A stretch of 64,000 nucleotides of DNA from an uncultured Clostridia bacterium (lineage in GTDB: Bacteria; Bacillota; Clostridia; Peptostreptococcales; Anaerovoracaceae): contig CAKQGQ010000005.1 in assembly GCA_934233735.1 (NCBI GenBank), positions 24,778-88,777 on the forward strand. Reading direction: 5' to 3'. Made by a program: the position numbers and the translations under genes. Positions 6,666-28,821 of this stretch are shown one piece after another. The notes below the pieces were generated by a model. The model was given only the letters and a program-made list of their open reading frames with translations. It searched no databases and had not been told where the DNA came from. Each line of letters starts with the position of its first letter. The stretch's first letter is position 1.

Positions 6666-6671
6666 TTCTAT

Positions 6672-6700: not shown

Positions 6701-6730
6701 ACAGCAGCAGAGCATTTCTGCTGTTTTTTT
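6699..6730 (+). terminator. Intrinsic terminator-like hairpin plus T-run upstream of the adhesin gene
   Basis: AAACAGCAG / CTGCTGTTT 9-bp stem followed by T7. Confidence 0.5.
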
Positions 6731-6826
6731 GTGCAGAAAACGGGAGGAAAGAAGAATGGGAAAAGCACGAGAGCCGACGAAAAGGAATCGAAACACAGAA
6801 AAATTACAGAGAGGAACAGAAAAAGC

Positions 6827-9800: not shown

Positions 9801-12800
9801 CAGGCGCAACCTTTGGAATCTTTGCGGCAGAGGATATTCTGTTAAACGACGGAAATGACGGACCGAAAATTTATGATACCCGGACAAACGAAGAGATTGT
9901 GATTCCGATGACGAAAGCAACGCACGAAAAGAATCCGCTGGAAGTTGTGCAGGGACTTTTATCCAAATTCTTTAAAGGCTCCGCGTCCGTTTATGAAACA
10001 GGAGAACTCGAAGTAAACTCCGGCGGCAAGCTTTGGTACCTCAAAGACCGCAGCGCAAAAGAAGATGGACATTATACACGGATGTATGTTTCGCCGGAAC
10101 AGAAAGATACGACCTATGCGTATACCTTTGAAAAAATCGAGGACGGGCTGAAAAAGGTTTATGAGGTACTGGTCAGCATGAACTATCAGGCAGGCGGCCG
10201 AAACATCACCGACATCCAGGTTACGAAAACAACTACGGCGGCAGATGGCTATGTAATCGACATTCCGACCACACTTCCGACTGCGACTGCAGGAGAGGAA
10301 GTCCTTGACCCAATTGAAAACTACCTCAAGAAAACGGATGAGACGGACACCAAAGAAAGAAGCAGCTTTACGGTTAGTGATAAAACCTATACCTTTGAAG
10401 CACTCGGCGAAGAAGATACCGATAAGGACGGAAATCCGGTAGACCTGTCAGACATCGGCGTAAGCCTTTATCTTGCAAAGGACTATTTGCCATATAAACT
10501 TCGTGCAGCCGACCTTGTAAAGGAAGAGCGCGTAATTACACCGGCGCAGGATGCCGATGGAGACGGCGTGTTTGAAGTGCCGGAGGTGAAAGAAAGCAAG
10601 ACGGTATATGAATGGACGCACGGCGGCGAGCTTGTGAATAAAACAGTTGGTGCTGCGGCAGTCTTAAAGACCGGAGACGAAGAATACAAGCTGGATACGA
10701 TAGGATACTATGAAAACGCACAGTATCAGGAGGCGCGCGCGTTTGTCTCCTGCTCCGCTGACGGAACACCGGATGCAGGCTATACGCTTCCGGAAGGCTA
10801 CAGCCTTTCCCCGTTCACCAAAGATGCGGAAAATGACCCGCACTACATTCTTGCAAGCATGGCAGACCCGGAAAATGCAGGACAGATGCTTTATCGCGTG
10901 CTTCTTTCTGACGTCATAACATGGCAGGACTGCGATAAAGACGGAAATTTCAAGAAAAGCGTCGTGCAAAGCTATACTGCAAGATACCTTCAGGCAGCAG
11001 GCGATGCGGATGGGTTCTCCTTTAGCTGGGACGGATTTGAAATTGAATCTTCCGTAAATGCGGAAGAAGATATCGCCATAACAATCGTTACGAAGCAGGA
11101 CGACAGGATCACGCCGGCCATATCGCTTGGCGCAGGCTATACCGATGAAACAAACGGACAAAAGAGCATCTTTACCGCAAGTAAGATTTCCTCACCGATT
11201 TACTTTTTATCAAGAGATGGTATCCGCACGGAGATGTATTATGCAGGCGGCGTAATGAAAACAACGCTTACCCTTCCGCAAAGTGCCGTGGATAAGAATT
11301 TTCAGCATGTTGTGCCAACCTTGAATTTTAAGGAAAACGGAAAGGATAACATCCTTGACTGGTATAAGGCACTTTCTCCGGATAACCCAATCGCTGAAGG
11401 AAGTCCGATTCCGGGTGTAAGCTGGAAGGCAGAGCGTATCGAATCCGGCAAGACCGGGGAGGCGGAAAGCTACCGGATTGAGATTTTATCCAATCAAACA
11501 AAAGATAATCCGATGGAAATCACATTCGCTGACGGGTACACGATGAGCCTGTATGCGGAAACGGCAGAATCCGGAAATGGCGTGGGAATTATTGAACTTG
11601 ATGGAATCTATAAGACAAACCGTGCGCCAAAATCAACACTTGTCGATACCATTACCACGGATGCGGACGGAAAAGCGGTATCAAAGCTCCTTCCGCTCGG
11701 AAAATATATCGTGATGGAGCTTGACACAGGTGCAGGCTATACCACAAGCACGAAATCCTACGAAGTCGAGCTGAAATATGAGAACCAATTTGTTCCGCTG
11801 GTGTGGGAGAAACTGGAGCTTTTAAACGAAAAGACTTCGGTGGAAATCGATTTGGAAAAGGGATTTGAAACCGCATATCAGTCGAAAACCTATACAAAAG
11901 GCGGCGGTGCAGTCTTCGGACTTTACGCAGGAGAGGAATTTACCGCAGCCGAAACAAAGGAAGGATACATCAGAACCGTCAAAGCAGGAACACTGCTTGA
12001 CATTCTGACGCCGGACGAAAACGGAAAGGCGCTTTCCGGCATGAAACTTCCTGACGGCATTTACTATGTCAAGGAAATCAGCACAAGAAGTGACTACAAA
12101 GTAAACGAAATGCCATTTTACTTCGTAGCCGGAGAAGAAAAGGAAGATGTATCGCTTCCATGCAAATTTGAATACACCGATGACGGCATCAGCGGGGAAA
12201 TCGTGCAGGAGAGCTTCGGCATCGCAAATGTTTATCTTCGCGTGCAGAAACGCTATCCGATGCCAAGCTTAACCATTAACGGAAACGAATATGCTCTCTC
12301 TGAAAGCATGGCAGAAGGCGGTGTGAAAATAGAAGCAAAGAAAGACTATACGGATATCATACTGACTGCTGAAAACGGAAAGGAACGAAAAGTTACGCTT
12401 CCAAACGGAAAGAGCCTTGCCGTAAATGTAAACGCAAACACCTATACTTACAAGCTTTCAGGTGGAGCTCTGCTTAACGGTAATTTTACGGTGGATGAAA
12501 TTACAGGAACCTATCTTCCGAAAGCCGTTTACACAGGTTATACCGCAATCTATGAAAGCCCGGAATTTCTTCCGGCAGAAGGCGAAAACTTAACCGTTAA
12601 AACCGATGCTGTCAATCTAAAAACGCCGAAAGAAGCAAATACCATCAAGGCAGAAATCACGCACAGCCCTAAGACCTATACCGTATCGGAAGAAAAATGG
12701 GTGGATGAAAACGACCACAGCCTTGGAATGACAACCGTAACTGTAACAAAAGGAAAAGTGGAAAACGGAAAGCAGCTTTATACGCATACTGCAAACCTCA

Positions 12801-14161
12801 CCTACACAGATGATGCAGGAAACACACAGATTCCGGCTGTGATTACCCGTATCCGCAAGAACCAAACGACCGAAGAGACGGTAGCAGAGCCGGCAGCACC
12901 GATTCTCATGCAGGAAGGAGATAGGATAAGATTTCAGTCCGGAGAAAAATCCGTGGCAGTATCATTAAGCATCGCCGGCATCCTGAAGCTTCAGGAAAGC
13001 GGAACGCTTCATGCTGCCTTAGAGGAAAACGAAAAGCCGAAAGCGACCTATAACGGACAGGAAGATACGAATGTGAAGTTTGTAAAATCTGTTACACTTG
13101 CAAGGCAAGACCATAAGGCAAAGACCATTCAGATTAAGCTGAACACAAAAGATAATCTGAATGCAGAGCTGATTGAAAATGAAAAGCTTCCGCCAACGAC
13201 ACAACCGACGCCGCCAAATTCTACAAACCCGGCAATCCGCACCATCGCAAAGGACAGCAGGACAAACGACCACATCGCCCTTGCAGGAAAGGATATAACC
13301 ATTATTGATACGGTTTACTTCTATAACCTGACCATTGGGCAGGAATACAAACTTGTCGGAAAACTGATGGATAAAGAAACAGGTAAGCCGATTCTGATCG
13401 ACGGCAAGGAAGTAACCGCTGAGGAGACCTTCAAGCCGTCCGTTTCCACCGGAACGCAGGATGTTTCATTTACTTTTGATGCACGAACTTTAGCAGGAAA
13501 AGATGTGGTAGTCTTTGAAACCCTGTTTAAGATTGCAGCTGATAAAGACGGTAAAGTAACCGAAGAAAAAGTTACAAGCCACGAGGACATCAACGATGAC
13601 GGACAGACAATTACATTCCCTGAAATCCACACAACTGCAAGCGGTGAAAATGGCGAAAAAACCATCGAAGCAAAAGGAATCGCAACCATCATCGACACGG
13701 TAAGATATGAGAATCTAATCGCCGGAAAGACCTATATGATGAAGGGCTACTTGGTAGACAAAAAGACCGGAAAGGCAATCTATGAAAACGGTAAGAAAGT
13801 CACTTCCGAGGTAACTTTCGTTGCAGAAGATACTTCCGGCACGGTAGAAATGGTATTTACCGTGAATGCAAAAGCATTATCAGGAAAGAAAATCGTTGTC
13901 TTTGAAGACTGTTACTTTGACGATGTAAAAGTCGGAACCCACACCGACATCAACGACGAAGGACAGACCGTAAAATTCAAAGCAAAAGACGGCCGCATCG
14001 AGTTTGACACCGAGCGTGACGAGGACGACGACGGCGATGTGGATATTGTTCCAAATGTTCCAAAGACCGGAGACCGTATGCAGCTTCAGCTGATGCTGCT
14101 TCTGATGCTTGCATCCCTTTTCGGAATGTTAGCATCCATCAGGATTCGGAGAAAAGAATAG
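6827..14161 (+). CDS. Giant cell-wall-anchored adhesin: candidate thioester domain, Cna-B/SpaA-like Ig domains, two Thr-Gln ester-bond (VaFE-type) domains, VPKTG sorting signal
   Basis: ATG at 6827 gives the signal peptide MIRKWEKSKKALTLILAFLIAFTYMPFGIGVEKADA. Candidate thioester motifs are YCLEHG (about 7135) and TRQLIHE (about 7400). Several G.Y.L.E...P.GY Ig-fold signatures are present. Two C-terminal repeats (about 13230-13985) end in VVVFE/IVVFE and HEDINDDGQT/HTDINDEGQT (HxDxxDxxQ). The C-terminus has VPKTGD, a hydrophobic helix and RIRRKE. Confidence 0.85.
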   Translation: MIRKWEKSKKALTLILAFLIAFTYMPFGIGVEKADATSGVTGSFKEGRVLESADGSTFKYTGNDAGWMQIYFVSYEGRSGGSFKVGPAKEVSPIRAYRVNGDVAYCLEHGVMADETVKLTGKDRDKAFLEETYRKSDSGNLEYILNNMSLCLLYGRQSGRSIGMLENTLGFKDSDYYKKTASSYNLDDWEVATRQLIHEAQQRFRDDKFDKKSSNGLYFEDYWYKGVSNPGNGNGKKISQSHYRKPLEGTGAVDIYDYMARLIKDHLQLSMKMGSYDYKKPKELKLTQGDDGKWYSKKIPLTKKEAIAVKMVKDNGDEYKNYHIKLTPEGGKFYYQYIMDSEPNWDKTYTVKKQISYFKQVPDDMLIWECKDGKGGHVQALATGSCDPISRYVKFTKTPPPVPSEPPEPEYFPQIQINVEKEDLNPGWDGNTHTGMGDASLAATYVLLRDGVEVDRITLDEYGNRQTLSDTPWPDALALTKTGSGSTAVHMVGNPPSDHCGTDGPTRYDWDGEVTYEVKEIRPDGRFIEPDSGERSMTVSYNAFTRDTRSYACQTPNWTDIVYTVKTTQTDGITFSDQNGTIDFVEDPIYADADTFINDCYRGKLTLSKSLENSDVFSERKSGTVGGEKDSTKSRWKMKLNSGGWESHPYVRFVREADLADGTSVYRVVRDTSGENNETTDMEIGTNGDLYIYDIPYGEYTLTEVSADDESFVKESCQVNIQEHDKPYTVTDKNDDRYDYNVRDKKKTNIIKVIKTNAETGKQVTAAGTKFYLRYMGDPLLADPTKSKNYGRLLPNAEDITKKGPYTWEADENGEITIPYELEWGIYRLEEWLLPEGYFAGEYGGGDTAKNHDYGKVEEGQQKALLGHAYSDLVGVYDADGKKITYKGKDSYKVNEVFNFYTFKVEKQDDHADGNFAHKVTADKDISKADEQYDSADYPYTNYYKAVAMPNNMVKGKIEIAKLGQILSGFKKETKLGKTVYTPMFTGTSKLAGATFGIFAAEDILLNDGNDGPKIYDTRTNEEIVIPMTKATHEKNPLEVVQGLLSKFFKGSASVYETGELEVNSGGKLWYLKDRSAKEDGHYTRMYVSPEQKDTTYAYTFEKIEDGLKKVYEVLVSMNYQAGGRNITDIQVTKTTTAADGYVIDIPTTLPTATAGEEVLDPIENYLKKTDETDTKERSSFTVSDKTYTFEALGEEDTDKDGNPVDLSDIGVSLYLAKDYLPYKLRAADLVKEERVITPAQDADGDGVFEVPEVKESKTVYEWTHGGELVNKTVGAAAVLKTGDEEYKLDTIGYYENAQYQEARAFVSCSADGTPDAGYTLPEGYSLSPFTKDAENDPHYILASMADPENAGQMLYRVLLSDVITWQDCDKDGNFKKSVVQSYTARYLQAAGDADGFSFSWDGFEIESSVNAEEDIAITIVTKQDDRITPAISLGAGYTDETNGQKSIFTASKISSPIYFLSRDGIRTEMYYAGGVMKTTLTLPQSAVDKNFQHVVPTLNFKENGKDNILDWYKALSPDNPIAEGSPIPGVSWKAERIESGKTGEAESYRIEILSNQTKDNPMEITFADGYTMSLYAETAESGNGVGIIELDGIYKTNRAPKSTLVDTITTDADGKAVSKLLPLGKYIVMELDTGAGYTTSTKSYEVELKYENQFVPLVWEKLELLNEKTSVEIDLEKGFETAYQSKTYTKGGGAVFGLYAGEEFTAAETKEGYIRTVKAGTLLDILTPDENGKALSGMKLPDGIYYVKEISTRSDYKVNEMPFYFVAGEEKEDVSLPCKFEYTDDGISGEIVQESFGIANVYLRVQKRYPMPSLTINGNEYALSESMAEGGVKIEAKKDYTDIILTAENGKERKVTLPNGKSLAVNVNANTYTYKLSGGALLNGNFTVDEITGTYLPKAVYTGYTAIYESPEFLPAEGENLTVKTDAVNLKTPKEANTIKAEITHSPKTYTVSEEKWVDENDHSLGMTTVTVTKGKVENGKQLYTHTANLTYTDDAGNTQIPAVITRIRKNQTTEETVAEPAAPILMQEGDRIRFQSGEKSVAVSLSIAGILKLQESGTLHAALEENEKPKATYNGQEDTNVKFVKSVTLARQDHKAKTIQIKLNTKDNLNAELIENEKLPPTTQPTPPNSTNPAIRTIAKDSRTNDHIALAGKDITIIDTVYFYNLTIGQEYKLVGKLMDKETGKPILIDGKEVTAEETFKPSVSTGTQDVSFTFDARTLAGKDVVVFETLFKIAADKDGKVTEEKVTSHEDINDDGQTITFPEIHTTASGENGEKTIEAKGIATIIDTVRYENLIAGKTYMMKGYLVDKKTGKAIYENGKKVTSEVTFVAEDTSGTVEMVFTVNAKALSGKKIVVFEDCYFDDVKVGTHTDINDEGQTVKFKAKDGRIEFDTERDEDDDGDVDIVPNVPKTGDRMQLQLMLLLMLASLFGMLASIRIRRKE

Positions 14162-16151: not shown

Positions 16152-17156
16152 ATGAGGAAACGAATATTAGCAGCGGTGCTTGCGATGTTTGTACTAACCA
16201 CATCGTCTGCATTTGCTGCTGAAAAAGAAATTACAAAAGAATACACCTTCGTGACTGACAAAGATGCAGAATTAGAATTTGCGGATGTCGGCAAGGGTGA
16301 TTTATCAGAGATTCCGCTGGAAATTGAAATAGAGGGCAAAACCTACAATGCAGTTTCAGCGGATTTTTCTTTAGCGAAAAAACCGACTGAAGTAAAAAAA
16401 ACATATGAGGATTTAGATAAAAAAGAAGTGCCGGAAACCATCGAAAAAGATGGCGAGGAGCTGAAGATCATTGACACAAAATGGACAGAGACCAAGCGTA
16501 CAGCTGCGACCGGAACCAAACGATATTACGGTTACAATACGCAGCCGGAGGCTCCGGCAACAAAAGAAATTACCGCAACCTTGCCAAATGGCAAAACGAT
16601 TACCGTTACCGGAAACTTCATTGACATCAAGAGAGTAAAAGGAGATTTCACAAAGCCTTTTTCGGTAACAGCAAAGTTCATCGGTGGGGAGGATGTTGAA
16701 AACTATATCTTGCCGGATGGAAGTAAAATACCGAATGACGAATCTATCCCGGTATTCAAGGGATACGAGGATATCATACTGAAGAATCTCGGCTACAGCA
16801 CGAAAAATTACCGCATCACGGGTGGAAAATGGATTACGGACTATTACGACGAAAACGGCGAAACCTGCCGGAAAGCGCAATTCACGGGGACGCAGCGCGG
16901 TACCGATTGGGTGGCAACTTATCGGGAAACGCTGACGGAAAACAGTGTGCAGTATGCGACCTACACCGCAGACTGTACCTACCGTTCGGATGATATGATG
17001 GTGAAAGCAACAGTGGCTTACGAGAAAGAAAGCGGAATCAATAAAACAATTCTGATGATCGCCGGAATTTTGCTGGCACTTATGGTGATAGCCGGAGTCA
17101 TATCAGGAATTTTAATGACAGCAAAGAAAAGAAAAAAAGAAGAAACAGAAAATTAA
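16152..17156 (+). CDS. Secreted protein with C-terminal membrane anchor
   Basis: Signal peptide MRKRILAAVLAMFVLTTSSAFAAE. C-terminal TM segment ILMIAGILLALMVIAGVISGILM followed by KKRKKEE. Confidence 0.65.
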   Translation: MRKRILAAVLAMFVLTTSSAFAAEKEITKEYTFVTDKDAELEFADVGKGDLSEIPLEIEIEGKTYNAVSADFSLAKKPTEVKKTYEDLDKKEVPETIEKDGEELKIIDTKWTETKRTAATGTKRYYGYNTQPEAPATKEITATLPNGKTITVTGNFIDIKRVKGDFTKPFSVTAKFIGGEDVENYILPDGSKIPNDESIPVFKGYEDIILKNLGYSTKNYRITGGKWITDYYDENGETCRKAQFTGTQRGTDWVATYRETLTENSVQYATYTADCTYRSDDMMVKATVAYEKESGINKTILMIAGILLALMVIAGVISGILMTAKKRKKEETEN

Positions 17157-17533: not shown

Positions 17534-17674
17534 ATGAAAAACATCATATTAACAAAACAAGAGGAAAAAGTGACCTATTTTGTGGATGAGGAGACACTGA
17601 CGGAAAAAGAGCTCAAAAATCTTCTGAAGGAAGAGGAAGGAGAAGAAGAGGACGATGAAGAGCCAAGAGTTTAG
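17534..17674 (+). CDS. 46-aa acidic peptide
   Basis: ATG after AAGAGGTGAAG; its stop overlaps the ArdC-like start. It is below the track size cut-off. Confidence 0.35.
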   Translation: MKNIILTKQEEKVTYFVDEETLTEKELKNLLKEEEGEEEDDEEPRV

Positions 17675-19112
17675 ACAAAAAATTGCGGATGCCTTTGTAA
17701 AAAGTATAACTGAATCGCCAAAGACATGGAAGCAAACCTGGCGCGCAACGAGCAGCGCACCACATAATGCTGTGACAAAGCGGAAATACAAAGGAATTAA
17801 CCGCCTGTGGTTATATGTCAGCATGCACAGGCTGGAAAGCGAGGATCCACGCTTTGTTACGTTTCAGCAGGCAAAAGATAACGGCTGGAAAATCAAGAAA
17901 GGGGAAAAAGGAACGCAAATTGAGTATTGGTTTCCCTATGACCTCATAGAGAAAAAAACAATCACTTGGGAGAATTACGCAAAACTCAAGCCCGAAGAAA
18001 GGGAGGACTATACGCTTCTTTCTAAGTGTTTTACCGTCTTTAATGCATGTCAGATTGAAGGGATGCCGGAACTTGAAATGCCGGAAGAAAGAGATATTTC
18101 TTCCAGTGAAGTGGTTGATAAAATTTCGGAGAATATGAAAGTGCCTATCATTCATGACGGAGGTAACGAGGCATTTTATCGAATTGCAGAAGACAACATA
18201 CATCTTCCGAAAAAAGAATACTTTGAAGATGATTATACATACAATGCGACTGTGCTGCATGAGCTGGCACACGCAACCGGACATGAGAAACGCCTGAATC
18301 GTGACATTGCAAATACGTTCGGCAGCGAAAACTATTCCTATGAGGAATTGGTTGCAGAGATGGCGAGCTGCTTTATGGCGGCTGAACTTCCGATCGATAT
18401 GAGCCAGGAGCATTTTGAAAATCATAAAGCATATATTCAAGGATGGGCAGACGGAATTAAGGAGCAGCCGGAGATTCTGATGAAAGCTGTCAAAGATGCG
18501 GAAAAAGCAGCCGATTATTTAAGTATGCAGGGTGAGCTGATGGCAGAAAAAGAATTCACAGAAAAGCACCACGGGATAAAGAAAGCAGGAGAAGTCTCCG
18601 GATGGGTAACTGAAGGAATCGATACCGCAAAGTCTCTACACATGCAAAGGAGACAAGAGAAAAAAAGATATGTGAATGATTATGTAGAAGCATTTATTAA
18701 GCACTATGATTTTACGCATCCTGAGGAGCTGAAGGGAAAGAGCATCACAGCACTTATGATGCAGCCGCTTGTTGCACAGGGCGGTGTTTGCGAAACGAAA
18801 GAAGACTGCATGAAATGGATTGCGCAAGATCCGGAATCCGCATTCGTGTTAAACAACGCATATATTGAAGGGAAGTTTCCTGAATTTGAGGGGGTGACAG
18901 CAGAAAGCAATCCTAAGCTTTACTCCCTGATTATGATGGAAAGTGAACTTTTTAAAGGACTTATGGAATGCGATTATGTACAAAACAACTGGGAGAAAAA
19001 AATAAATTTTGACCGAAGATGTGCAAGCAGCATCTGTGAAGCTTTTGGAATATGCACCCCGGAAAATGCAAGATACCGAAAAATGGATGTAAAAGGATTT
19101 GAACTGGAATGA
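17655..19112 (+). CDS. ardC: ArdC-like antirestriction protein (ArdC-N ssDNA-binding domain plus HExxH metalloprotease-like domain)
   Basis: N-terminal RKYKGINRLWL...FVTFQQAKDNGWKIKKGEKGTQIEYW matches the ArdC-N pattern, followed by the zinc motif HELAHATGH. Confidence 0.8.
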   Translation: MKSQEFRQKIADAFVKSITESPKTWKQTWRATSSAPHNAVTKRKYKGINRLWLYVSMHRLESEDPRFVTFQQAKDNGWKIKKGEKGTQIEYWFPYDLIEKKTITWENYAKLKPEEREDYTLLSKCFTVFNACQIEGMPELEMPEERDISSSEVVDKISENMKVPIIHDGGNEAFYRIAEDNIHLPKKEYFEDDYTYNATVLHELAHATGHEKRLNRDIANTFGSENYSYEELVAEMASCFMAAELPIDMSQEHFENHKAYIQGWADGIKEQPEILMKAVKDAEKAADYLSMQGELMAEKEFTEKHHGIKKAGEVSGWVTEGIDTAKSLHMQRRQEKKRYVNDYVEAFIKHYDFTHPEELKGKSITALMMQPLVAQGGVCETKEDCMKWIAQDPESAFVLNNAYIEGKFPEFEGVTAESNPKLYSLIMMESELFKGLMECDYVQNNWEKKINFDRRCASSICEAFGICTPENARYRKMDVKGFELE

Positions 19113-19128
19113 AAAAAAGGAGGAGAGC

Positions 19129-22100
19129 ATGGCAATCAGAAAAGAAGACCTGGCAGCAGAAATAAAAAACACAATGCAAAATATCAATGATGAGCCGCAA
19201 ACGTTTCGCGATGTGCTGAAAAGCATTTCAAACACATACCGATATTCCTTTGAAAATCAGATGGCCATTTTTTCACAAAGAAAAGATGTCATGGCAGTTG
19301 CAAGCATGAATTTGTGGAATCGGCTGCACCGAAGTGTACAGAAAGGACATATTGGTATTCGCCTGCTAAACAGGGAAGACTTCAGCAGACAAATTTATGT
19401 ATGGGATATCAATGATACAGAAGGCGAAGAAATTAAGCTGTGGCAGCTTCAAGACGCAAAAGAGAATACCATTTCAAACGCTTTGCAGCGCATCTGCGGA
19501 GAAAAAGAAGAAAGTTTGGAAGAAAAAATCGGAAGAATTGTGAAAGAGGAAGCCGAAGAAATCTATATGCAAAGACTGGAAGGATTCACAAGGAGAAAAA
19601 AAGACAGCTTAACGGAAGAATACATTGCTGCAATCGGAGACGGATTCGAGGTTGCATCGAAAATGGCAGCCTACCTATGCAAGTTACGGTGTGGTTTGGT
19701 TACTGACCGTTTGCCGCAAGACGCATTTGGCTTTTATGATATTCCAAAGCCTATCCGGGAAGACGAAGATTATTTTTATATGCTTTTTTCATCTGCGAGC
19801 GAAGCCGCATCCGGAATGCTTTCCTTCATTTCACAGGAAGTAAAAAAGGAAATTGCAGAAAAAAGAAAAATCCAGTACAATAAAGAAAAAGAAGAGGAAA
19901 GGGGAAGAAACAATGAGAACGGCAAAGGAAATAACGGAGAAGAAGAGCTGGATGCAGATGGGCAGATACGGCCGCGCAAGGGAAGCATTTTTACAGAAAG
20001 AGAATCCGAAACTGTACAGACAGATGCTGGCGGAAGGCGTGATGCTGGAGTATCTGACGGACACGGACAAGAGCGCGCAGCAGATGAGGGAGAATATCAT
20101 GAGGCAGAAGATGAAAAAAGAGGGCGTGAGCGAAGAACTGAAAGCGCAGAACCCACAGGAATGGACAGCGAGGATGAATCAAATCATGATAGAAGCGGAC
20201 AGCATCGTCATGCGGGAAATGATTTTGACCTTATAAGCATAGACAACCATATCTGTAGGAAGATGGATGAATGGCAGCAGGATACTGCAAGCTATATGCT
20301 TGGACAATGCCTTGAGGATGAAGCTTTTTTCTACGTAGCGGCTCGTGAAACCATTGAGGACTTTCAGGGAAAATACACCTATGAATTTGACCGGATGCCG
20401 GAACGGGAAAGCGTGCAGGATGTCCATATTTCACATATTGCAGAACTTGCTATTGACCGAAACGAGGCGAAAGCAGAAGGATATGCTTTCCCACAAGGAA
20501 GAGGGACGGATTTTGATACCGTAGAAGTGCAGGCAGCCAGCCGAAGCAATTATAAAGGATACAATGTTTTCGCTAAATTTAACCGATACAGCAGGGATAA
20601 CGAGTATCAAATTTTAATGGGAAAACAAGAGAATTATCATGTCGAAGATGGAAAAGGGCTTTACGACAATCGTGATAATTCTCTTCTTTTTATCACAGAA
20701 AACCGGCGCATGTTCGGACTACTGGATGCCGGGCGCGGCTGGGTAAAAAGCCAGCAGGAGATGATTGACGTCGGAGCCTTTACAGAGGAAGACTACCGGG
20801 AGTATGCAGAACTTGAAAATGGAATTTTAAGTCATTTTGATAAGCTGCAGGACAAAATGTTTTCTATTGATATTGATAACGATGCGAGCGGAGAAGCGTT
20901 TATCTATCCGAAGTGGCGCAAAGAAAGAAATATTGACCTGATTGACCGTGCGATGCGCCTGATTGATGAATACTGCATGGAAGAATTCGAGCATCATGCG
21001 GACTTTTCCGAGCCGGAAGAAGTAGGCCTTGCATGCACGGAAACATCAGACGGAAAGCATGAAATCCAGGTTTCCTGCGATTTGCTTCATTTTGAAATCC
21101 GGACGCAAATTGACGGAGTGATGGTTGATAAAAGAAACTATGACACTTTGCAGGAACTGATCGATCAGGAACTTGTTTTCTTAGAATTTTCGGCATTAAC
21201 ACAGAATCTTCCGGAACATGTATGGAAGGATAAAAACCTTCGATACTCGGTTCTTGAAGTCTATGGACGAGGCGTATATGGCATATGGGACAATCAAGAA
21301 GAAGCCTTTATCAGCATCGATGAGAAGGATATCACGACCTTTGCGACAGAAGCAGAGGCGCTCGCTGCACTGAATCCGCCGAAAGATATTACACCGGAAC
21401 TGGTGGAAATCGGGGAACAGATAAGCTTTATAAATACGCAAAGCGTAAAACATACTGCGGATTTGATTACGAAGGATGATATTGACCAAATTCTGATGTA
21501 TGGAAGCAACGATCGGCTGGGAAGAGCAAAAATCTGTCTCGAATATATGAAAAGAAAATCTGCAGAAGAAATAATAGAAAGTCTCCCTTCTGTTTATAAA
21601 GGCAGTTACGGACTTAAAACGCTCGAAAAGGAAATCAGTGCAAGATATGAAAAAGAAGGAATATTCCTCTCAATCGGAGGAGGTTTCAATGAGAATGACT
21701 GTATACTTCTTTCATGGAGAATGGCGGAAGATAAAATCCGCAGCATGATAGAGAAAGGCACTTTTGCAAGCAGAAGCGATGTTGCCATGGCGCATGGATA
21801 TGAGAAAACTTTTACTGCTGAAAGCTTGATCGAAATGTGGCACGACCTATCGGATGAAGCAAAAATGCAGCACTATCTTCCGAGCATAGAGAAAATCGAA
21901 AATCAAAAGCTCGGAAGAGAAGGCAGTAAAGAAATTTTGGCAGAAAAATTCTATGATGAATTTTTCCTGCAGGTTATCACCGGAGAATATGAGCGTTTCT
22001 ATCAGGACTACCTGAAAAACCCAAATTTACTGCGATTCTCTTTTCACAAAACAGAGGCACTTCGTACGCATCTTAAGGAACTTAGCATACCGCTTACGCA

Positions 22101-25100
22101 GCTTTCGATGCAGGCGCAGGCCATGACAGAGCCTGCAAGTTTTATCACCCATGATGAAATCATGTACGCTTTGAAAGAGGGCAGTATGTTTGCCGGAGGA
22201 AAGTACCGCATTTATCGATATTTTCAGGAAAAGCACAGTCTGAAGGAAAAAGCCGCATTTCTTTCCGGAGAATATGGCACCGGTGGACATTCCTATGCTT
22301 TTGCAGGAGAAAATTGGAGTGAACAAAATCATGACAGTAAAGGCCTCGAATATCAAAAGTACGATTGTGAAACCATTAAACTTTCGTGGAGCCAGGCTGC
22401 ACATCGAATTGATGAACTGATACAAAGGGAAGACTATTTAACGGATGAGGAACTTCTTGAAATCGCAAAGGAAAAAGAGCTGCAGGAGGAAAATCCTGAA
22501 GACAAGGCAGAAGTGACAAACGCTGCTTCGGAAAGCAATTCGGCGGCAGAGGAACAAACTGCGGCCGAAAACTATAGCATTACAAACGAAGCGCTTGGAG
22601 ATGGAAGCAAAGCGGAAAAAATACGACGAAATCTTGACGCAATTCGGACGCTGAAAGAAATTGAAAGCAGAGGAACTTTAGCAACTTCATCCGAGCAGGA
22701 TATCTTGGCCGGATATGTGGGCTGGGGCGGAATCCCCGAAATTTTCGAGGAAAAGCATGCACAGCATCAAGAGCTGAAAAACTTGCTCACGGAAGAAGAA
22801 TATACGAGTGCAAGACAGAGCGTTCTTAGTGCGTATTATACCAAGCCGGTTGTCATCGATGCGATGTACGGGATGCTAAAAAACTTCGGCTTTGACGGTG
22901 GAAACCTGTTAGAACCATCTTGCGGCGTCGGAAACTTTTTCGGAAGACTGCCAAGTGCTATGCGCGAAAGCACGAATCTTTATGGAGTGGAACTTGACAG
23001 CCTTACCGCGCGGCTTGCACAGATGATTTATCCGCAGGCAAAGATTATCCAAGCAGGATATGAAGAAACAAATTTTGAAGACAATTCCTTTGATATTGCC
23101 ATCGGTAATGTACCGTTTGGTGATTTTGGAGTAAATGACCATGCCTATAAAGAAAACTTTTTGATTCATGATTATTTCTTTGCCAAAACGCTGGATAAGG
23201 TAAGAAGCGGCGGGCTGATACTGTTTATTACATCAAGCGGGACAATGGATAAGAAGTCATCAAAAGTCAGAGAGTACCTTGCAAAACGTGCGGATCTTCT
23301 CGGTGCGATTCGGCTTCCAAACAGCGCATTCTCGAATGCCGGAACAAAGGTTACAAGTGATATTTTGGTTCTGCAGAAAAAGGAGATTCCAAAAGAACCG
23401 GAGGAAAACCTTGCATGGCTGCATGTGGGAACCGATGAAAAGGGGCTTTCGTATAACCAATATTTCATTGAGCATCCGGAGATGATTGTCGGGACGATGC
23501 AGGAAGTAACCGGTCCGTATGGAAACGCTGCTGCCTGCATTCTTTCGGACCCGGAAAGACTGAAAGAAAAACTAACAGAAGCAGTAGAGAAAATAAACGG
23601 ACACTACAGCCCGATTGTTATCTTCGATGAAGATGAGGAAGAAACAGACAGTATCCCTGCAGATATTGCTATGCCGAGCTTTTCTTACTCGGTGAAGGAC
23701 GAAAAACTTTTTTACAAAGAAACATCCGTTATGTATCCGGTGGATAGGGGAAGCACGGTAAACGGAAGAATCGCAGGCATGATTAAAATACGGGAAAGCT
23801 TGCGCGAACTGATTCAGGCACAGATGGAAGATAAAGACGATGAAGAAATTCATGCGCTGCAGGAAAGACTTATGGGCATCTATCAGAGCTTTGTAAAAAA
23901 GCATGGTGCAGTCAGCAGCAGGGCGAATGCACTGGCATTTCGTGATGACAGCGCCTATCCGCTGATTTGCTCGCTTGAGGAGCTGGACGAGGAAGGCAAT
24001 GTAAAAAAGCTTGCAGATATTTTCCACAAACGAACCATCAGTGCAAAAAAAGAATACACAAGCGTGGCAAGTGCAAAGGATGCACTTGCTATTTCTTTGC
24101 GGGAAAAAGGATATGTGGACATTTCCTATATGCAAAGTCTTTATGATAAGAGCGAAAACGAAATTGTAACCGACCTTTCCGGTCAGATTTTCAGAAAACC
24201 GGATTTTGAGCAGGACGCCGAGCCGCAATATTTGACAAGAGATGAGTACCTGTCCGGAAATGTGCGGCGAAAACTTGCTGAAGCAAAAGCAGCAGATGAA
24301 GGGCTGGGAGGTATCTATCAGGAAAATGTTGCAGCACTTACCGAAGCACTTCCCAAGTGGCTGGACGGCTCTCAAATTGATGTCAGACTTGGCAGCACGT
24401 GGGTACCGCCGCATATTGTCGAGGAATTTATCGCAGAACTTTTAAATGTGCAAGGCTGGGGGCGTCAGTCGCTTTCTGTGACCTATAACAGTCTTTCGGG
24501 AACTTGGAATGTAGACGGCGGATATCGATGGTCAGTCGAAGCGACAAGGACTTACGGAACAAGTAAGGCAGATGCTTACCGCATTATCCGAGATACGCTC
24601 AATCTTCGAACGGTAAATATCACAGAAGAAGATTCTGAGGGAAGGCGTGTAACCAACCTGCAGGAAACAACACTTGCCTGTCAGAAGCAGGATATGATTA
24701 AGGATAAATTTAAGCAGTGGGTTTGGAAGGATATTGACAGACGAAAGGAACTTGAAGAAATCTATAATAAGCAGTTTAACAGCGTTGTTCCGAGAAAGTA
24801 TGATGGAAGTTTTCTTGACTTTCCGGGAATGAATGCGTCAATTACCTTAAAGCCACATCAAAAAGATGCGGTAGCACGGCAGATTTTCGGTGGGAATACA
24901 CTTCTCGCTCACACCGTCGGCGCAGGCAAAACTTTTGAGATGGCAACCGCTATCATGGAAAAGAAACGCCTTGGATTATGCCATAAAGCAATGCTTGTTG
25001 TGCCAAACCATCTGACAGACCAATGGGCAAATGAATTTTTACGGCTGTATCCAAACGCAAAAGTGCTTGCAACAACGAAAAAGGATTTTACACCAATGAA

Positions 25101-27327
25101 CCGAAAGCGTTTCTGCTCAAGGATTGCAACCGGAGATTACGATGCAATTATCATCGGGCATAGCCAGTTTGAAAGAATTCCGCTGTCGAAAGAAAGGCAG
25201 ACTGCGTTTATCAATCTGCAGATTACGGATATTGAAAAGGAAATTACGGTACTCAAAGAGATGCACGGCGAGAGAGTTTCCATTAAGCAGCTTGAGCTGA
25301 TGAAGAAAAAACTTGCTACAAAACTCCAAGCACTCAATGATGCAAGCGTCAAAGATAATACCGTAACCTTTGAAGAACTGGGGATTGATTTCCTTTGTGT
25401 GGATGAGGCGCACAACTACAAAAATCTCGCGCTAAACACGAAGATGAGTAATGTCGCAGGCATTTCCGGCGCGTCGGCAAATAAAGCTTATGATATGTTT
25501 GCAAAATGTAGATACCTGGACGAAATCACAGACGGATGCGGCATTACCTTTGCAACCGGAACGCCGGTATCAAACTCCATGGCAGAGCTGTATACCATGC
25601 AGCGCTACCTGCAGTATGATACGCTAAAGGAAATGAATCTGTTATCCTTTGATGCATGGGCATCAACCTTTGGCGAGACAGTAAGTGCATGGGAGCTGGC
25701 ACCGGAGGGGACGAAGTACAAGAGAAGAACGCGCTTTGCAAAATTCTTCAATCTTCCGGAACTTATGGGAAGCTTCTGCGAAGTTGCGGATATTAAGACC
25801 GCAGATATGCTGAATCTTGATACGCCGAATGTTGTGCAGGAGACGGTTACTGTGCCTGCTACCCAGGTGCAGCTTCAGACACTTCGAGAGATTGGAAAGC
25901 GCGCAGATGCAATCAGGGAAGGCAGTATCGATCCGTCGATTGACAATATGCTTAAGATTACAACGGACGGCAGAAAGCTTGCACTTGACGAACGCATTCT
26001 TTTGGGAGGAAGCGAACACCCGCTTGGAAAGACAAAGGTAGACTACCTGGTTGAAGCCGCAGCCGAGATTTATCACAGAACCGCAGAAAAGAAGTCAACA
26101 CAACTCATATTCTGTGATTTAAGCACGCCCAAAAGGGATGGCAGCTTTAGCATTTATGATGAAGTGAAGAAAGGACTGATTGCGCATGGTGTAGCGGAAG
26201 AAGAAATTGCATTTATGCATGACTATAACAGCGACAGTCAAAAAGAGAATGTCAGAAGAAAAGTACGTACCGGTGCGGTTCGGTTTCTTCTTGGAAGCAC
26301 GGCTCTCATGGGCGAGGGAATGAACGTGCAAAACAAGCTGATTGCCATTCATCATTTGGATGTACCGTGGCGTCCGAAAGACCTTGACCAAAGACAAGGA
26401 AGAATTGAACGTCAGGGAAATGAAAACGAAGAGGTATATGTATACCGCTATATTACAGCCAATACTTTTGATGCTTATTCCTGGCAGACACTTGAAACCA
26501 AACAGCGCTATATTTCGCAGATTATGACCAGTAAATCACCGGCGCGAAGCATGGAAGACATCGACGACACCTGTCTTGACTATGCCGCAACAAAATCACT
26601 TTGTACCGGAAATCCGAAAATCAAAGAGAAAATGGAACTTGAAAATGACATTTCGCAGCTGAAACTCTTAGAACAAAGTTATCACTCTGCGCAGATTCAT
26701 ATGCAGGAGGAGCTTTATCGGTCGTATCCTGAAAGCCTTGCAGCAAAACTGAAAGAACTGAAGCTTTGCGAGGAAGATAATGCCTTGTATCAAAAAAATA
26801 AAGGAGATAAGACTGTGCAGGTAGCAGATGCTGCTTTTACGAATCCTGATGCCGCAGGCACCGCACTGTTTGCACTTACTGCGAAGTACAAAAACGAACC
26901 GGGCTGGAAAAAGATTGGCTCCTATAAGGGCTTTGACATCAGCACAATGTTTGAGGACAGCTATTACAAGCTGCGTGTAAAGAATCCGGAAAAGAGCAGC
27001 GGTTACATCATCAAGCGAGGCGCGGATCCGGAGAAAATCGTACCTAATATTGATGAACTTTTTGAAGGCTACAGCGAGAAGATTTCAAAGCTGAAAGAAA
27101 CGATTGAAGGTCTGGAAAGAAACATGGAAAAACTGAAAAAGGAACTTGAAGTGCCGTTTGCGTATGCGAAAGAGCTTTCAGAAAAGGAGAAAAGGCTGGA
27201 AAGGCTCGATGAAGAACTTCTGCAAGAGCAGCAGGCAAATACGGCCGAAAGTGCAGAAGAAAAACTTCCTGAAAGCGAGGAAGAAGTGACCTATGAAAAA
27301 TGTGAGGACGAGGAATGGGATATATAG
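19129..27327 (+). CDS. Giant polyvalent protein: ArdC-N-like domain, uncharacterised LPD-type modules, N6-adenine DNA methyltransferase, SNF2/DEAH helicase, coiled-coil tail
   Basis: ATG at 19129 after AGGAGGAG.
- N-terminus YSFENQMAIFSQ...WNRLHRSVQKGHIGIRL is ArdC-N-like.
- Methyltransferase motif I is LEPSCGVGNFFG (about 22909) and motif IV is GNVPFG (about 23104).
- Helicase motif I is AHTVGAGKTF (about 24907), motif II is VDEAHNYKN (about 25399), and motif VI is QRQGRIERQG (about 26389).
- The frame is uninterrupted for 2732 codons. Confidence 0.88.
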   Translation: MAIRKEDLAAEIKNTMQNINDEPQTFRDVLKSISNTYRYSFENQMAIFSQRKDVMAVASMNLWNRLHRSVQKGHIGIRLLNREDFSRQIYVWDINDTEGEEIKLWQLQDAKENTISNALQRICGEKEESLEEKIGRIVKEEAEEIYMQRLEGFTRRKKDSLTEEYIAAIGDGFEVASKMAAYLCKLRCGLVTDRLPQDAFGFYDIPKPIREDEDYFYMLFSSASEAASGMLSFISQEVKKEIAEKRKIQYNKEKEEERGRNNENGKGNNGEEELDADGQIRPRKGSIFTERESETVQTDAGGRRDAGVSDGHGQERAADEGEYHEAEDEKRGRERRTESAEPTGMDSEDESNHDRSGQHRHAGNDFDLISIDNHICRKMDEWQQDTASYMLGQCLEDEAFFYVAARETIEDFQGKYTYEFDRMPERESVQDVHISHIAELAIDRNEAKAEGYAFPQGRGTDFDTVEVQAASRSNYKGYNVFAKFNRYSRDNEYQILMGKQENYHVEDGKGLYDNRDNSLLFITENRRMFGLLDAGRGWVKSQQEMIDVGAFTEEDYREYAELENGILSHFDKLQDKMFSIDIDNDASGEAFIYPKWRKERNIDLIDRAMRLIDEYCMEEFEHHADFSEPEEVGLACTETSDGKHEIQVSCDLLHFEIRTQIDGVMVDKRNYDTLQELIDQELVFLEFSALTQNLPEHVWKDKNLRYSVLEVYGRGVYGIWDNQEEAFISIDEKDITTFATEAEALAALNPPKDITPELVEIGEQISFINTQSVKHTADLITKDDIDQILMYGSNDRLGRAKICLEYMKRKSAEEIIESLPSVYKGSYGLKTLEKEISARYEKEGIFLSIGGGFNENDCILLSWRMAEDKIRSMIEKGTFASRSDVAMAHGYEKTFTAESLIEMWHDLSDEAKMQHYLPSIEKIENQKLGREGSKEILAEKFYDEFFLQVITGEYERFYQDYLKNPNLLRFSFHKTEALRTHLKELSIPLTQLSMQAQAMTEPASFITHDEIMYALKEGSMFAGGKYRIYRYFQEKHSLKEKAAFLSGEYGTGGHSYAFAGENWSEQNHDSKGLEYQKYDCETIKLSWSQAAHRIDELIQREDYLTDEELLEIAKEKELQEENPEDKAEVTNAASESNSAAEEQTAAENYSITNEALGDGSKAEKIRRNLDAIRTLKEIESRGTLATSSEQDILAGYVGWGGIPEIFEEKHAQHQELKNLLTEEEYTSARQSVLSAYYTKPVVIDAMYGMLKNFGFDGGNLLEPSCGVGNFFGRLPSAMRESTNLYGVELDSLTARLAQMIYPQAKIIQAGYEETNFEDNSFDIAIGNVPFGDFGVNDHAYKENFLIHDYFFAKTLDKVRSGGLILFITSSGTMDKKSSKVREYLAKRADLLGAIRLPNSAFSNAGTKVTSDILVLQKKEIPKEPEENLAWLHVGTDEKGLSYNQYFIEHPEMIVGTMQEVTGPYGNAAACILSDPERLKEKLTEAVEKINGHYSPIVIFDEDEEETDSIPADIAMPSFSYSVKDEKLFYKETSVMYPVDRGSTVNGRIAGMIKIRESLRELIQAQMEDKDDEEIHALQERLMGIYQSFVKKHGAVSSRANALAFRDDSAYPLICSLEELDEEGNVKKLADIFHKRTISAKKEYTSVASAKDALAISLREKGYVDISYMQSLYDKSENEIVTDLSGQIFRKPDFEQDAEPQYLTRDEYLSGNVRRKLAEAKAADEGLGGIYQENVAALTEALPKWLDGSQIDVRLGSTWVPPHIVEEFIAELLNVQGWGRQSLSVTYNSLSGTWNVDGGYRWSVEATRTYGTSKADAYRIIRDTLNLRTVNITEEDSEGRRVTNLQETTLACQKQDMIKDKFKQWVWKDIDRRKELEEIYNKQFNSVVPRKYDGSFLDFPGMNASITLKPHQKDAVARQIFGGNTLLAHTVGAGKTFEMATAIMEKKRLGLCHKAMLVVPNHLTDQWANEFLRLYPNAKVLATTKKDFTPMNRKRFCSRIATGDYDAIIIGHSQFERIPLSKERQTAFINLQITDIEKEITVLKEMHGERVSIKQLELMKKKLATKLQALNDASVKDNTVTFEELGIDFLCVDEAHNYKNLALNTKMSNVAGISGASANKAYDMFAKCRYLDEITDGCGITFATGTPVSNSMAELYTMQRYLQYDTLKEMNLLSFDAWASTFGETVSAWELAPEGTKYKRRTRFAKFFNLPELMGSFCEVADIKTADMLNLDTPNVVQETVTVPATQVQLQTLREIGKRADAIREGSIDPSIDNMLKITTDGRKLALDERILLGGSEHPLGKTKVDYLVEAAAEIYHRTAEKKSTQLIFCDLSTPKRDGSFSIYDEVKKGLIAHGVAEEEIAFMHDYNSDSQKENVRRKVRTGAVRFLLGSTALMGEGMNVQNKLIAIHHLDVPWRPKDLDQRQGRIERQGNENEEVYVYRYITANTFDAYSWQTLETKQRYISQIMTSKSPARSMEDIDDTCLDYAATKSLCTGNPKIKEKMELENDISQLKLLEQSYHSAQIHMQEELYRSYPESLAAKLKELKLCEEDNALYQKNKGDKTVQVADAAFTNPDAAGTALFALTAKYKNEPGWKKIGSYKGFDISTMFEDSYYKLRVKNPEKSSGYIIKRGADPEKIVPNIDELFEGYSEKISKLKETIEGLERNMEKLKKELEVPFAYAKELSEKEKRLERLDEELLQEQQANTAESAEEKLPESEEEVTYEKCEDEEWDI
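19913..20236 (+). CDS. tnpV: TnpV-family small protein, nested in the +1 frame inside the giant ORF
   Basis: 107 aa. GRYGRAREAFLQKENPKLYRQMLAEGVMLEYL...EGVSEELKAQNPQEWTARMNQIMIEADSIVMREMIL follows the TnpV pattern (G.WG....YL....P.LY..L..G.L..YL...AQ...EGVTEELKA....W...MN.I...AEEI...E.I). Own RBS AGGAAAGGGGAAG, and the stop falls at the family's natural C-terminus. Confidence 0.7.
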   Translation: MRTAKEITEKKSWMQMGRYGRAREAFLQKENPKLYRQMLAEGVMLEYLTDTDKSAQQMRENIMRQKMKKEGVSEELKAQNPQEWTARMNQIMIEADSIVMREMILTL

Positions 27328-27617: not shown

Positions 27618-28022
27618 ATGGAATATATTTCAGGAATCCACGCACTGAATCTTCCGTGCGAGCTTGAGACCTGCGGAGACTGGCATACATCGGCGCTGCA
27701 ATGGAAAAAGCCTTTTGTACGAGAATCAAACGGCAGCCTTTTCGGTGATTACGGAATCGAAAAGAATAAGACGATACCGGAGCACGAGGAGCGATATTAT
27801 GCAGCAAACCACATCCGGGCATTGCTGGATCTCTTAGAAGAGGGGCGATTTTCCGTTGCGCAGGGGATGCGAGATGATTTTATCTGCAATGACAAATACG
27901 ACGAGGAGATCTTTGCGAAGGTATGGATGCTAAGAGGCTTGCCAAACTGGGAAAACATTGACCGTTTCATGCAGAAAGAATATTACCGAAAATGGAGAAA
28001 TTACAAGGAGAAGCATTCATGA
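27618..28022 (+). CDS. Hypothetical protein, putative partner (antitoxin position) of the AbiEii-like gene
   Basis: 134-aa ORF. Its stop overlaps the downstream ATG (ATGA). No wHTH/AbiEi signature recognised. Confidence 0.55.
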   Translation: MEYISGIHALNLPCELETCGDWHTSALQWKKPFVRESNGSLFGDYGIEKNKTIPEHEERYYAANHIRALLDLLEEGRFSVAQGMRDDFICNDKYDEEIFAKVWMLRGLPNWENIDRFMQKEYYRKWRNYKEKHS

Positions 28023-28753
28023 AGGATTGGAAAGAACTGCACGGAAAAGTCATTGATGACTTTTTGCTGTATCTGAATGAGAGGACAGACAATTTCATTC
28101 TCAAAGGAGGAACGGCACTTTTAGAATGTTATGGCCTTGACCGTTTTTCCGAAGATATTGATTTTGACGGAAAAGAACCGAATATCGAAGAATATGTTGC
28201 GGCATTTTGTGAGAAGAATCAGTATGATTATCGGGTTGCAAAAGATACGGACACCGTAAAGCGATATATGATTCACTATGGAAACGAAAGAAAACCGTTA
28301 AAAGTTGAGACTTCGTTTCGTAGAAAGCAGATTCCGCAAGAAGAGACAACAAAGATTAACGGCGTGAATGTCTACCGGATTAATCCGCTTTGCACCATGA
28401 AAGTCAATGCCTATATGGGAAGAGATAAGCTTCGTGATTTATATGATGTTGCTTTTATCTGCGGCCACTATTTTGATGAGCTGCAGCCGACCACGAAAGC
28501 GCTTCTTCAAAATGCATTGATGTACAAAGGAATCGAACACTTCGATTACATTGTCAATCAGGAAAAAGACGAACTCATCGACGAAAACAGACTGGCAGAG
28601 TCTTTTCTGAATATGTTTGAACAATTCGATTTACTTTACACCGAAGAAGAAAAAGAAATTCTTCGTGATGTGGCGAAAGCTTCCGAAAATGTACGGACAA
28701 GAGAGAAAGCGAATCTCAAGAATAAGAAAAAAAATTTTGACTTGGAAATTTAA
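28019..28753 (+). CDS. Nucleotidyltransferase, AbiEii/AbiGii toxin family (DUF1814-like)
   Basis: ILKGGTALLECYGLDRFSEDIDFD is the family's NTase signature (GG..L....R.S.DIDF); length is about 244 aa. Confidence 0.75.
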   Translation: MKDWKELHGKVIDDFLLYLNERTDNFILKGGTALLECYGLDRFSEDIDFDGKEPNIEEYVAAFCEKNQYDYRVAKDTDTVKRYMIHYGNERKPLKVETSFRRKQIPQEETTKINGVNVYRINPLCTMKVNAYMGRDKLRDLYDVAFICGHYFDELQPTTKALLQNALMYKGIEHFDYIVNQEKDELIDENRLAESFLNMFEQFDLLYTEEEKEILRDVAKASENVRTREKANLKNKKKNFDLEI

Positions 28754-28803: not shown

Positions 28804-28821
28804 GTGGAAAGGAAAGGGACT

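Follow-up and report, generated by a model that had tools for sequence, protein, structure and literature searches.

Probable nesting of a tnpV gene in the +1 frame of a giant polyvalent-protein gene on conjugative elements of Bacillota

Results

A tnpV gene lies out of frame within a giant open reading frame

The DNA under study (the window) is a stretch of 64,000 nucleotides (nt) from an uncultured Clostridia bacterium (contig CAKQGQ010000005.1, positions 24,778 to 88,777). It contains a giant open reading frame (ORF) for a polyvalent protein, and within this ORF a complete gene of the TnpV family can be read on the same strand in a second frame. We regard the two as a genuine nested gene pair that is maintained by selection on conjugative elements of Bacillota, and we give this reading a probability of roughly 0.8. 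The initial annotation of the window had offered three explanations, namely two overlapping genes with a small protein placed in the linker after the head of the giant protein, three ancestral genes welded into one ORF, and paired frameshift errors in the assembly. The comparative evidence described below supports the first. The features concerned are as follows (positions are those of the window).

19129..27327, + strand: giant polyvalent ORF, 2,732 amino acids (aa), with an ArdC-like head, a linker, uncharacterised modules, an N6 methylase and an SNF2 helicase
19129..19911, + strand: ArdC-N-like head, giant aa 1-261
19913..20236, + strand: nested tnpV gene, 107 aa, in the +1 frame relative to the giant ORF
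19912..20238, + strand: giant-frame reading of the overlap, a hydrophilic, low-complexity linker of 109 codons without a stop

The distance between the two start codons (19913-19129 = 784) is 1 modulo 3, as expected from the +1 frame that had been assigned to the 107-aa ORF. Counted from TTG 19853, the nested ORF comprises 127 aa. When its product was searched against the hidden Markov model (HMM) of the Pfam family TnpV (PF14198), it scored 86.3 bits (E = 1.8e-24; cut-off 27), and the proposed family membership was borne out. The match spans model positions 17-111 of 111, and the tnpV stop codon stands 3 residues past the last matched residue, so that the stop does fall at the C terminus of the family. 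The statement that the family pattern is followed along the whole length held for model positions 17-111 and failed for the N-terminal ~16 model residues (the 'GDYLIP.L' segment, positions 1-16), which the window TnpV lacks. This segment is present in the nested copies L012, L017, L019, L049, L011, L094, and L095. It is not family-defining, because short forms without it also occur as free genes, and the nested TnpV aligns end to end with such short-form TnpVs. A phmmer search returned 2,120 TnpV relatives of the nested product; the best 150 of them are 96-318 aa long, with the domain at the C terminus in the large majority. The nested product also matched PHROG 24764 at 4.6e-19, a family whose function is given as unknown in PHROGs.

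The overlap is constrained in the tnpV frame and kept free of stops in the giant frame

The differences between the members of four pairs of nested loci were counted by giant codon position 1/2/3, as listed here.

Window and L010: head 21/8/54; overlap 25/7/7; downstream 17/15/59
L019 and L032: head 12/9/63; overlap 13/5/4; downstream 31/23/86
L017 and L043: head 42/25/101; overlap 25/17/11; downstream 64/48/148
L048 and L062: head 22/13/54; overlap 22/10/8; downstream 40/28/74

In all four pairs, the changes pile up on giant position 3 in the flanks and on giant position 1 in the overlap. Since giant position 1 is tnpV position 3, tnpV is the frame under purifying selection in the overlap. 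The amino acid identity of TnpV was higher than that of the linker in five of the five pairs compared; between the window and L010, it was 90% for TnpV and 73% for the giant-frame reading. Furthermore, the overlap carried no indels even at 34% nt divergence, and the flanks had gaps.

A stop in the giant frame requires a tnpV codon ending in T that is followed by AA, AG, or GA. In the window, none of the 21 tnpV codons before AA, AG, or GA ends in T, compared with 6 of the 40 elsewhere. The other nested copies behaved in the same way, with 0/19 to 0/39 T-ending codons at the at-risk junctions and 5/56 to 20/66 at the others. We then fixed the TnpV protein and drew synonymous codons from the flanking giant-gene codon usage, and the probability that the giant frame stays open, P(open), was 0.0035-0.0055 for the window and ranged from below 1e-5 to 0.0045 in ten other nested copies (six lineages). 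The values by copy are as follows.

Window: 0.0035
L010: 0.0012
L012: 5e-5
L017: 0.003
L048: below 1e-5
L049: 0.0045

The claim that an alternative frame of a real gene is unlikely to stay open by chance is borne out by these values and also by the free-standing genes. Seventy-one tnpV genes outside giant ORFs carried 1-17 stops in this frame, save about five, whose open frames are short ORFs (at most 149 codons; one is a 4-codon fragment). The frequency of T at the third codon position (T3) of tnpV relative to neighbouring ORFs had a median of 0.27 in nested genes versus 0.74 in 66 free-standing ones (Mann-Whitney p = 1.6e-6, with lineages that are not fully independent). The frame-constraint test that had been proposed on aligned homologues thus returned a dual-coding signature, made up of the codon-position switch in four pairs and the avoidance of stops. 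The constraint on the host frame within the overlap is stop avoidance as read from these alignments, and amino acid constraint beyond that was not detected.

The composition of the giant-frame reading fits this picture. The initial annotation had described it as stop-free and rich in Gly, Glu, Arg, and Asp, and it is so: its hydrophobic fraction is 0.10, versus 0.32-0.33 in the rest of the giant protein, and its mean Kyte-Doolittle hydropathy is -1.75. Across all lineages, the hydrophobic fraction of the linker is 0.09-0.15 and the mean hydropathy is -1.3 to -1.8. The linker is hydrophilic and rich in Gly, Arg, Asp, Glu, and Ser because the second giant codon position coincides with the first of tnpV, where purines prevail. 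What look like motifs in the linker, such as 'PDGMG' and 'DLQL', are the conserved TnpV motifs NQMEW and LIYS-stop seen through the other frame. A spacer of such composition is probably disordered. The evidence fits a history in which tnpV would be the older frame and the giant-protein linker the overprinted one.

The nested arrangement is found across Bacillota

To define the distribution of the pair, one genome per bacterial species (GTDB) was scanned with a TnpV alignment as the query, and 80 tnpV loci were obtained. In nine of the 80 (L012, L017, L019, L032, L043, L048, L049, L050, and L062), a giant ORF with a head encloses tnpV in its +1 frame; isolates are represented among these by Flavonifractor sp. 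An82, Lachnoclostridium sp. An14, and Eisenbergiella porci. At these loci, the start of the giant ORF lies 244-286 codons upstream of tnpV. Six of the nine ORFs run on for more than 2,000 codons, and the other three end at 816-903 codons (stop or contig end). Compared with the window, the heads are 25-38%, the TnpVs 36-43%, and the methylase/helicase bodies 45-53% identical. Among the 80 loci, head homologues were found only at the nested ones.

Further cases on plasmids were found by reading the +1 frame of plasmid giant genes. The nested TnpVs found outside the nine loci scored as follows, in each case above the Pfam cut-off or with an equivalent HMM hit.

L003, Virgibacillus plasmid: 76.5 bits (Pfam)
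L093, C. botulinum pCDC3875: 91 bits (Pfam)
L092, Listeria monocytogenes plasmid: 29 bits (Pfam)
L011, Subdoligranulum: 144.8 bits (Pfam)
L094, Cohnella: 98 bits (HMM built from alignment A2)
L095, Monoglobus: 127 bits (HMM built from alignment A2)

In 95 Listeria plasmid records, the nested ORF is present at full length, and the gene annotated over it is named only SNF2-related or ArdC-like. Altogether, more than 15 nested loci, which represent at least 8 lineages, have both frames open and always at an offset of +1, with TnpV identities that go down to about 36-43% or below.

Among the loci examined, none had its head, tnpV, and body as three separate genes. The proposal that three genes were welded into one ORF by the loss of stops therefore keeps its place as a possible historical origin and finds no extant three-gene state, and the welded state itself bears the marks of selection. 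An insertion of tnpV into an existing linker would fit the data as well as a fusion of three genes would.

Two further observations concern the distribution of the family. In Subdoligranulum (OY725878.1, L011:11227-11616), a second, free-standing tnpV lies two genes downstream of the giant gene that carries the nested one. In the Streptococcus agalactiae plasmid pR31-snf2-M (CP138365.1, L096:2998-6456), a head-bearing giant gene has an open +1 ORF of 136 codons after the head and the same kind of giant-frame linker. The match of this ORF to TnpV is marginal (hhalign P 0.0018; 8 bits against the nested-TnpV HMM), and it may be a very diverged tnpV copy.

Both frames are intact in independent copies of the locus

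Copies of the window's locus were recovered from different samples and assemblers (Logan, ENA, JGI, and others). L004 is 100% identical over 6.6 kb, with the giant ORF open; L005 is 97.7% identical overall and identical over 19000-20250; L006 is 99.5% identical; L007-L009 are 96% and L010 is 89% identical at the nt level. Over 19129-20700, these seven independent copies show zero indels, and both ORFs are intact in each. An additional copy, L001, is discussed with the evidence against the nested pair.

Searches with the giant protein or its DNA were less productive. The pieces aa 1-524 and 371-924 returned no homologue; since metagenome loci of 85-94% identity exist, this result reflects a limit of candidate selection and not absence. 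A first scan of genome contigs with the giant N terminus gave no match, and neither did a megablast of 19129-21500 against plasmids and phages. In an exact-protein look-up, the giant protein, the AbiEii gene product, and the product of the ORF at 16152-17156 were not on record.

Initiation signals precede the nested gene

Two elements ahead of tnpV are relevant to its expression.

19896..19904, + strand: Shine-Dalgarno sequence GGAAAGGGG of tnpV, which ends 8 nt before the ATG
19843..19912, + strand: A-rich 70 nt upstream of tnpV, which start right after the +1-frame stop TAA at 19840-19842

The nested ORF had been credited with a ribosome-binding site of its own, and GGAAAGGGG at its distance of 8 nt agrees with this. 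In most nested copies, GAAAGGAG, or GAAAGGGG as in the window, stands 7-9 nt ahead of the tnpV ATG; degenerate versions (GAAAGGGG, GAAAGGAAGG, AAAAGGAG, and AGAGAGGG) are found in L049 and in the plasmid copies of Bacilli and C. botulinum. In the window, TAA 19840-19842 closes the tnpV frame upstream; L010 has an additional TAA at a distance of two codons from the ATG, and in other lineages a stop lies 5-8 codons ahead of it. Because the Shine-Dalgarno sequence and the ATG are conserved, the tnpV frame is closed upstream, and no slippery motif is conserved, we infer that TnpV is made by internal initiation at its own ATG. The 70 nt before the ATG differ from those of L010 at 1 position, where about 8 differences were expected.

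A weak promoter-like site, TTGCAG (19853-19858) and TACAAT (19876-19881) with a 17-nt spacer, is present in the window. At the homologous place in the L017/L043/L019/L032 lineage, there is a near-consensus sigma-70-type sequence, TTGCCA or TTGCAA followed after 17 nt by TATAAT, with 10-11 of 12 consensus positions matched. It lies inside the giant ORF (L017:4842-4870; also in L043, L019, and L032), ends 46 nt before the tnpV ATG, and has the top score among all 100-nt windows of the giant ORFs of these four loci. A promoter role is suggested for this site where it is strong and would not be universal. As a general mechanism, the internal promoter was rejected, since it is strong in the L017/L019 lineage alone and weak or missing in the others. 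The TATAAT of the L017-lineage promoter is read in the giant frame as a conserved 'YN'.

Layout of the giant protein

The giant ORF starts at ATG 19129, and its first in-frame start codon is TTG 19099. Downstream of the linker, three Pfam domains are recognised.

22801..23385, + strand: N6 DNA methylase domain, giant aa 1225-1419 (PF02384, E = 3.4e-8)
24841..25428, + strand: SNF2/ResIII helicase N-lobe, giant aa 1905-2100 (PF00176, 3.6e-10; PF04851, 2.7e-7)
26197..26418, + strand: helicase C-terminal domain (Helicase_C), giant aa 2357-2430 (PF00271, 1.5e-6)

One giant polypeptide thus combines several effector domains, a DNA methylase with an SNF2 helicase, as is characteristic of polyvalent proteins. 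The head is less easily named. The initial annotation had called it ArdC-N-like, a label that stands by family and not by the window copy alone, which reaches the Pfam family ArdcN only at E = 0.42. Of the 12 head homologues that were aligned, four match ArdcN at 6.5e-6 or better, and the RefSeq name of the Listeria homologue is 'ArdC-like ssDNA-binding domain-containing protein'; a profile search with the head against PDB sequences did not find ArdC. We consider the head to be ArdC-N-like by family, an assignment that is weak from the window sequence. Head aa 4-250 are 26-37% identical to the N termini of Listeria, C. botulinum, and Virgibacillus plasmid proteins that are annotated as 'SNF2-related protein' or 'ArdC-like ssDNA-binding domain-containing protein'. 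Since these SNF2 giant proteins of plasmids share the head, its fusion to a giant SNF2 protein is the norm of the family.

Alternative explanations

Could the 2,732-codon ORF be an accident, in which separate head, tnpV, and methylase-helicase genes merely happen to lack stops between them? The few T-ending codons of tnpV already raise the odds of an open alternative frame, about five of the 71 free-standing genes do have that frame open, and the stop of L001 lies just upstream of tnpV. However, the open frame is joined to the head and the giant body in every one of the nested loci, P(open) is 0.005 or less per lineage, the T3 depletion is specific to nested copies, and a separate head gene followed by tnpV was not met with at any locus. 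Moreover, the first in-frame Met codon after tnpV, at 20263, is ATG in the window and CTG in L001, L006, and L007-L010; since it is not kept, no separate start codon is conserved for the body of the giant protein. An accidental ORF is very unlikely on this evidence. Still harder to credit are errors of assembly or sequencing that hide an in-frame TnpV domain of the giant protein. Apart from the a priori possibility, nothing speaks for them; homopolymer A runs are found just upstream (19843-19870). The same frames without indels were found in eight independent assemblies from different samples, the frame structure recurs in complete plasmid sequences of isolates, and distant homologues keep the +1 offset, so that the paired frameshifts once proposed had to be given up. 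The conserved Shine-Dalgarno sequence, ATG, and stop at the family C terminus also argue against an in-frame domain, and none of the best 150 of the 2,120 TnpV relatives exceeds 318 aa.

If a programmed +1 frameshift or transcriptional slippage in the A-rich tract joined the head to TnpV as a short isoform, the A-rich runs before tnpV, the A_AAA_AAG at 19842-19848 (phased for -1 slippage), and the unusual conservation of the 70 nt upstream would be accounted for. However, the tnpV frame is +1 (or -2) and not -1, it is shut by a stop ahead of its ATG in the window, in L010, and in other lineages, no slippery motif is conserved across lineages whereas the Shine-Dalgarno sequence and the ATG are, and there was no Rfam match. 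One database protein, P0009 (210 aa), is a head-TnpV fusion: compared with L017:4058-5276, it has L017-type head residues 1-117 in frame with TnpV residues ~29-119. Its junction fits a deletion of about 592 nt (1 mod 3), which would give a natural head-TnpV fusion, or a misassembly. A frameshifted fusion is accordingly improbable, and we give equally little credence to the view that tnpV is a decaying, unexpressed relic of an old insertion, kept because the giant protein needs a linker. The absence of the N-terminal ~16 model residues from the window TnpV and the low score of the Listeria copy (only 29 bits) would suit a relic. Nevertheless, the third positions of tnpV take up the changes in the overlap, and TnpV is better conserved than the linker, where a constraint driven by the linker would give the opposite. 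Every copy, down to an identity of about 36-40% or less, has an intact ORF, start, Shine-Dalgarno sequence, and stop, and short-form TnpVs exist as free-standing genes.

Several observations weigh against the nested gene pair itself. L001, a 741-bp contig with a coverage of ~1, has a TAA in the giant frame at 19858. Eight clustered A-to-T changes are found at the end of this contig (L001:1-110, window 19829-19934) and in no other copy, and past 20445 it diverges completely from the window. Because the TAA lies inside this cluster, we take it as probably a read error. In the Monoglobus record, the head is interrupted by a stop (2992-3138, after which the frame opens again), and in Flavonifractor the giant copy breaks off after 903 aa. 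Because the lineages are homologous, the per-lineage values of P(open) are not fully independent of one another. In a poorly resolved neighbour-joining tree of 90 aa, the nested TnpVs are not monophyletic, so that the tree lends no support to a single origin of nesting. That both products are expressed is predicted from sequence signals (the Shine-Dalgarno sequence, the ATG, and the lineage-specific promoter). As for structure, no solved structure is related to TnpV by sequence; a single-sequence AlphaFold model of TnpV is all-helical, of medium confidence (predicted local distance difference test score of 70, predicted template modelling score of 0.52), and found no fold match with Foldseek against PDB (nothing with E below 5).

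Genomic context

Immediately upstream of the giant ORF lies a canonical ArdC gene, which ends 17 nt before it.

17655..19112, + strand: canonical ArdC, ArdcN plus zincin metallopeptidase (Pfam PF08401, 6.8e-25; PF18818, 2.5e-36)

Downstream of the giant ORF are AbiEii, a pentapeptide/RadC giant protein, and a VirD4/TraG coupling protein. Because of its ArdC and VirD4/TraG neighbours, the window is taken to be part of a conjugative element, as the location test on its neighbours and homologues bears out. A type IV secretion system pilin gene is near the locus in L005, and homologues occur on MOBP/MOBQ plasmids. The AbiEii toxin gene occupies 27618-28753 and is preceded by an ORF of 134 aa; a 1,327-aa protein with pentapeptide repeats and a RadC-like JAB domain is encoded at 28804-32787, and another large ORF, of 2,519 aa, at 6602-14161.

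Many of the 'long' TnpVs among the cluster representatives (P0026, P0062, P0088, and P0101-P0137) have unrelated N termini (relaxase, VirD4, single-stranded DNA-binding protein, topoisomerase, and integrase), and their junctions lie at slightly varying points near 'IPNIIIRKTKPLGHYG'. The VYKRQ and SYTHL peptides in some of them look as if they were derived from sequencing adapters. These long TnpV proteins are probably chimeric contigs built around the repeated tnpV.

Discussion

The arrangement described here can be compared with several known systems. In Bacillus subtilis, comS, which encodes a lineage-specific peptide of 46 aa, lies in another frame of srfA-B, where it overprints an enzyme domain. 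Like comS, the nested tnpV is a small ORF on the same strand as a giant multidomain gene, which contains it out of frame and on the same mRNA, and it has a ribosome-binding site to itself. Unlike comS, the nested gene would here be the older one, encoding 107-165 aa and belonging to a large Pfam family, the host frame would be derived and unconstrained, and the pair spans Bacilli and Clostridia. The Rz/Rz1 spanin genes of phage lambda and the B-in-A and E-in-D genes of phiX174 are phage lysis or replication genes of compact genomes, in which the embedded gene is usually novel. These share with our pair a gene fully embedded in the +1 frame, the maintenance of both genes, and a mobile element as host; in contrast to them, the host gene here measures 8 kb and belongs to a conjugative element, the gene embedded in it would be ancestral, and the host frame reads a spacer. 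To our knowledge, nested out-of-frame genes of more than 100 codons that are conserved across bacterial classes are rare.

The nested product belongs with the TnpV of Tn4451/Tn4453 (PF14198) by HMM score, alignment, and C terminus. Classical TnpV genes are free-standing, small genes and are so annotated in plasmid records, whereas the nested tnpV has no intergenic DNA around it and the window copy is short. Polyvalent proteins of conjugative elements and phages were described as a class by Iyer et al. (2017, PMC5512222). With them, the giant protein shares a DNA methylase and an SNF2 helicase in one polypeptide and probably an N-terminal head of ArdC-N type, as well as the vicinity of ArdC and VirD4; it differs from those described there in its embedded gene and alternative-frame linker, and the text of PMC5512222 makes no mention of TnpV, overlapping frames, or frameshifts. 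Full-text literature searches found no paper linking TnpV with nested or overlapping genes or with polyvalent proteins.

The annotation tables examined, of which the PLSDB table is incomplete, give one gene of the pair only. The annotated gene is the giant one in the Listeria, C. botulinum, and Virgibacillus plasmids and TnpV in Cohnella and Monoglobus. In the latter two records (L094:2947-6582 and L095:3139-6378), a 'TnpV protein' is annotated and the giant gene is not; in the Cohnella record, a minus-strand hypothetical gene is called over the head. A real gene has thus been left out of the annotation of at least 95 Listeria plasmid records and of many integrative elements from the gut.

As to how the pair would work, ribosomes starting at 19129 would make the full 2,732-aa protein. 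Reading straight through tnpV, one base upstream of its frame, they would produce a hydrophilic spacer between the head and the rest. For TnpV, translation would begin at the nested ATG, directed by a strong Shine-Dalgarno sequence within the mRNA of the giant gene, and some lineages would add the internal sigma-70-type promoter. Such an overlap may be cheap, as the sole strong demand on the giant frame would be the absence of stops, and tnpV would comply by avoiding T-ending codons before AA, AG, or GA. The direction of the overprinting is unusual: an established gene would be read in a second frame and would supply a spacer, presumably disordered, for a giant protein.

We tentatively consider that TnpV could be a dedicated partner (a chaperone, regulator, or co-effector) of the ArdC-head/SNF2 protein, and that nesting would enforce their co-inheritance and co-expression; this possibility is the less likely one on present evidence. 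It may be speculated further that TnpV works with the polyvalent protein while the element establishes itself in a new host. If TnpV is such a partner, the two genes would rank among the most widely conserved nested pairs on one strand that are known from mobile elements of bacteria; the overprinted frame would be that of the host gene and not of the nested gene, and the pair would provide a first functional handle on TnpV. The single-base mutations T19914C and C19963T would separate the two frames cleanly, and the tie between the TnpV family and anti-restriction or establishment proteins would offer a testable lead to the function of the family.

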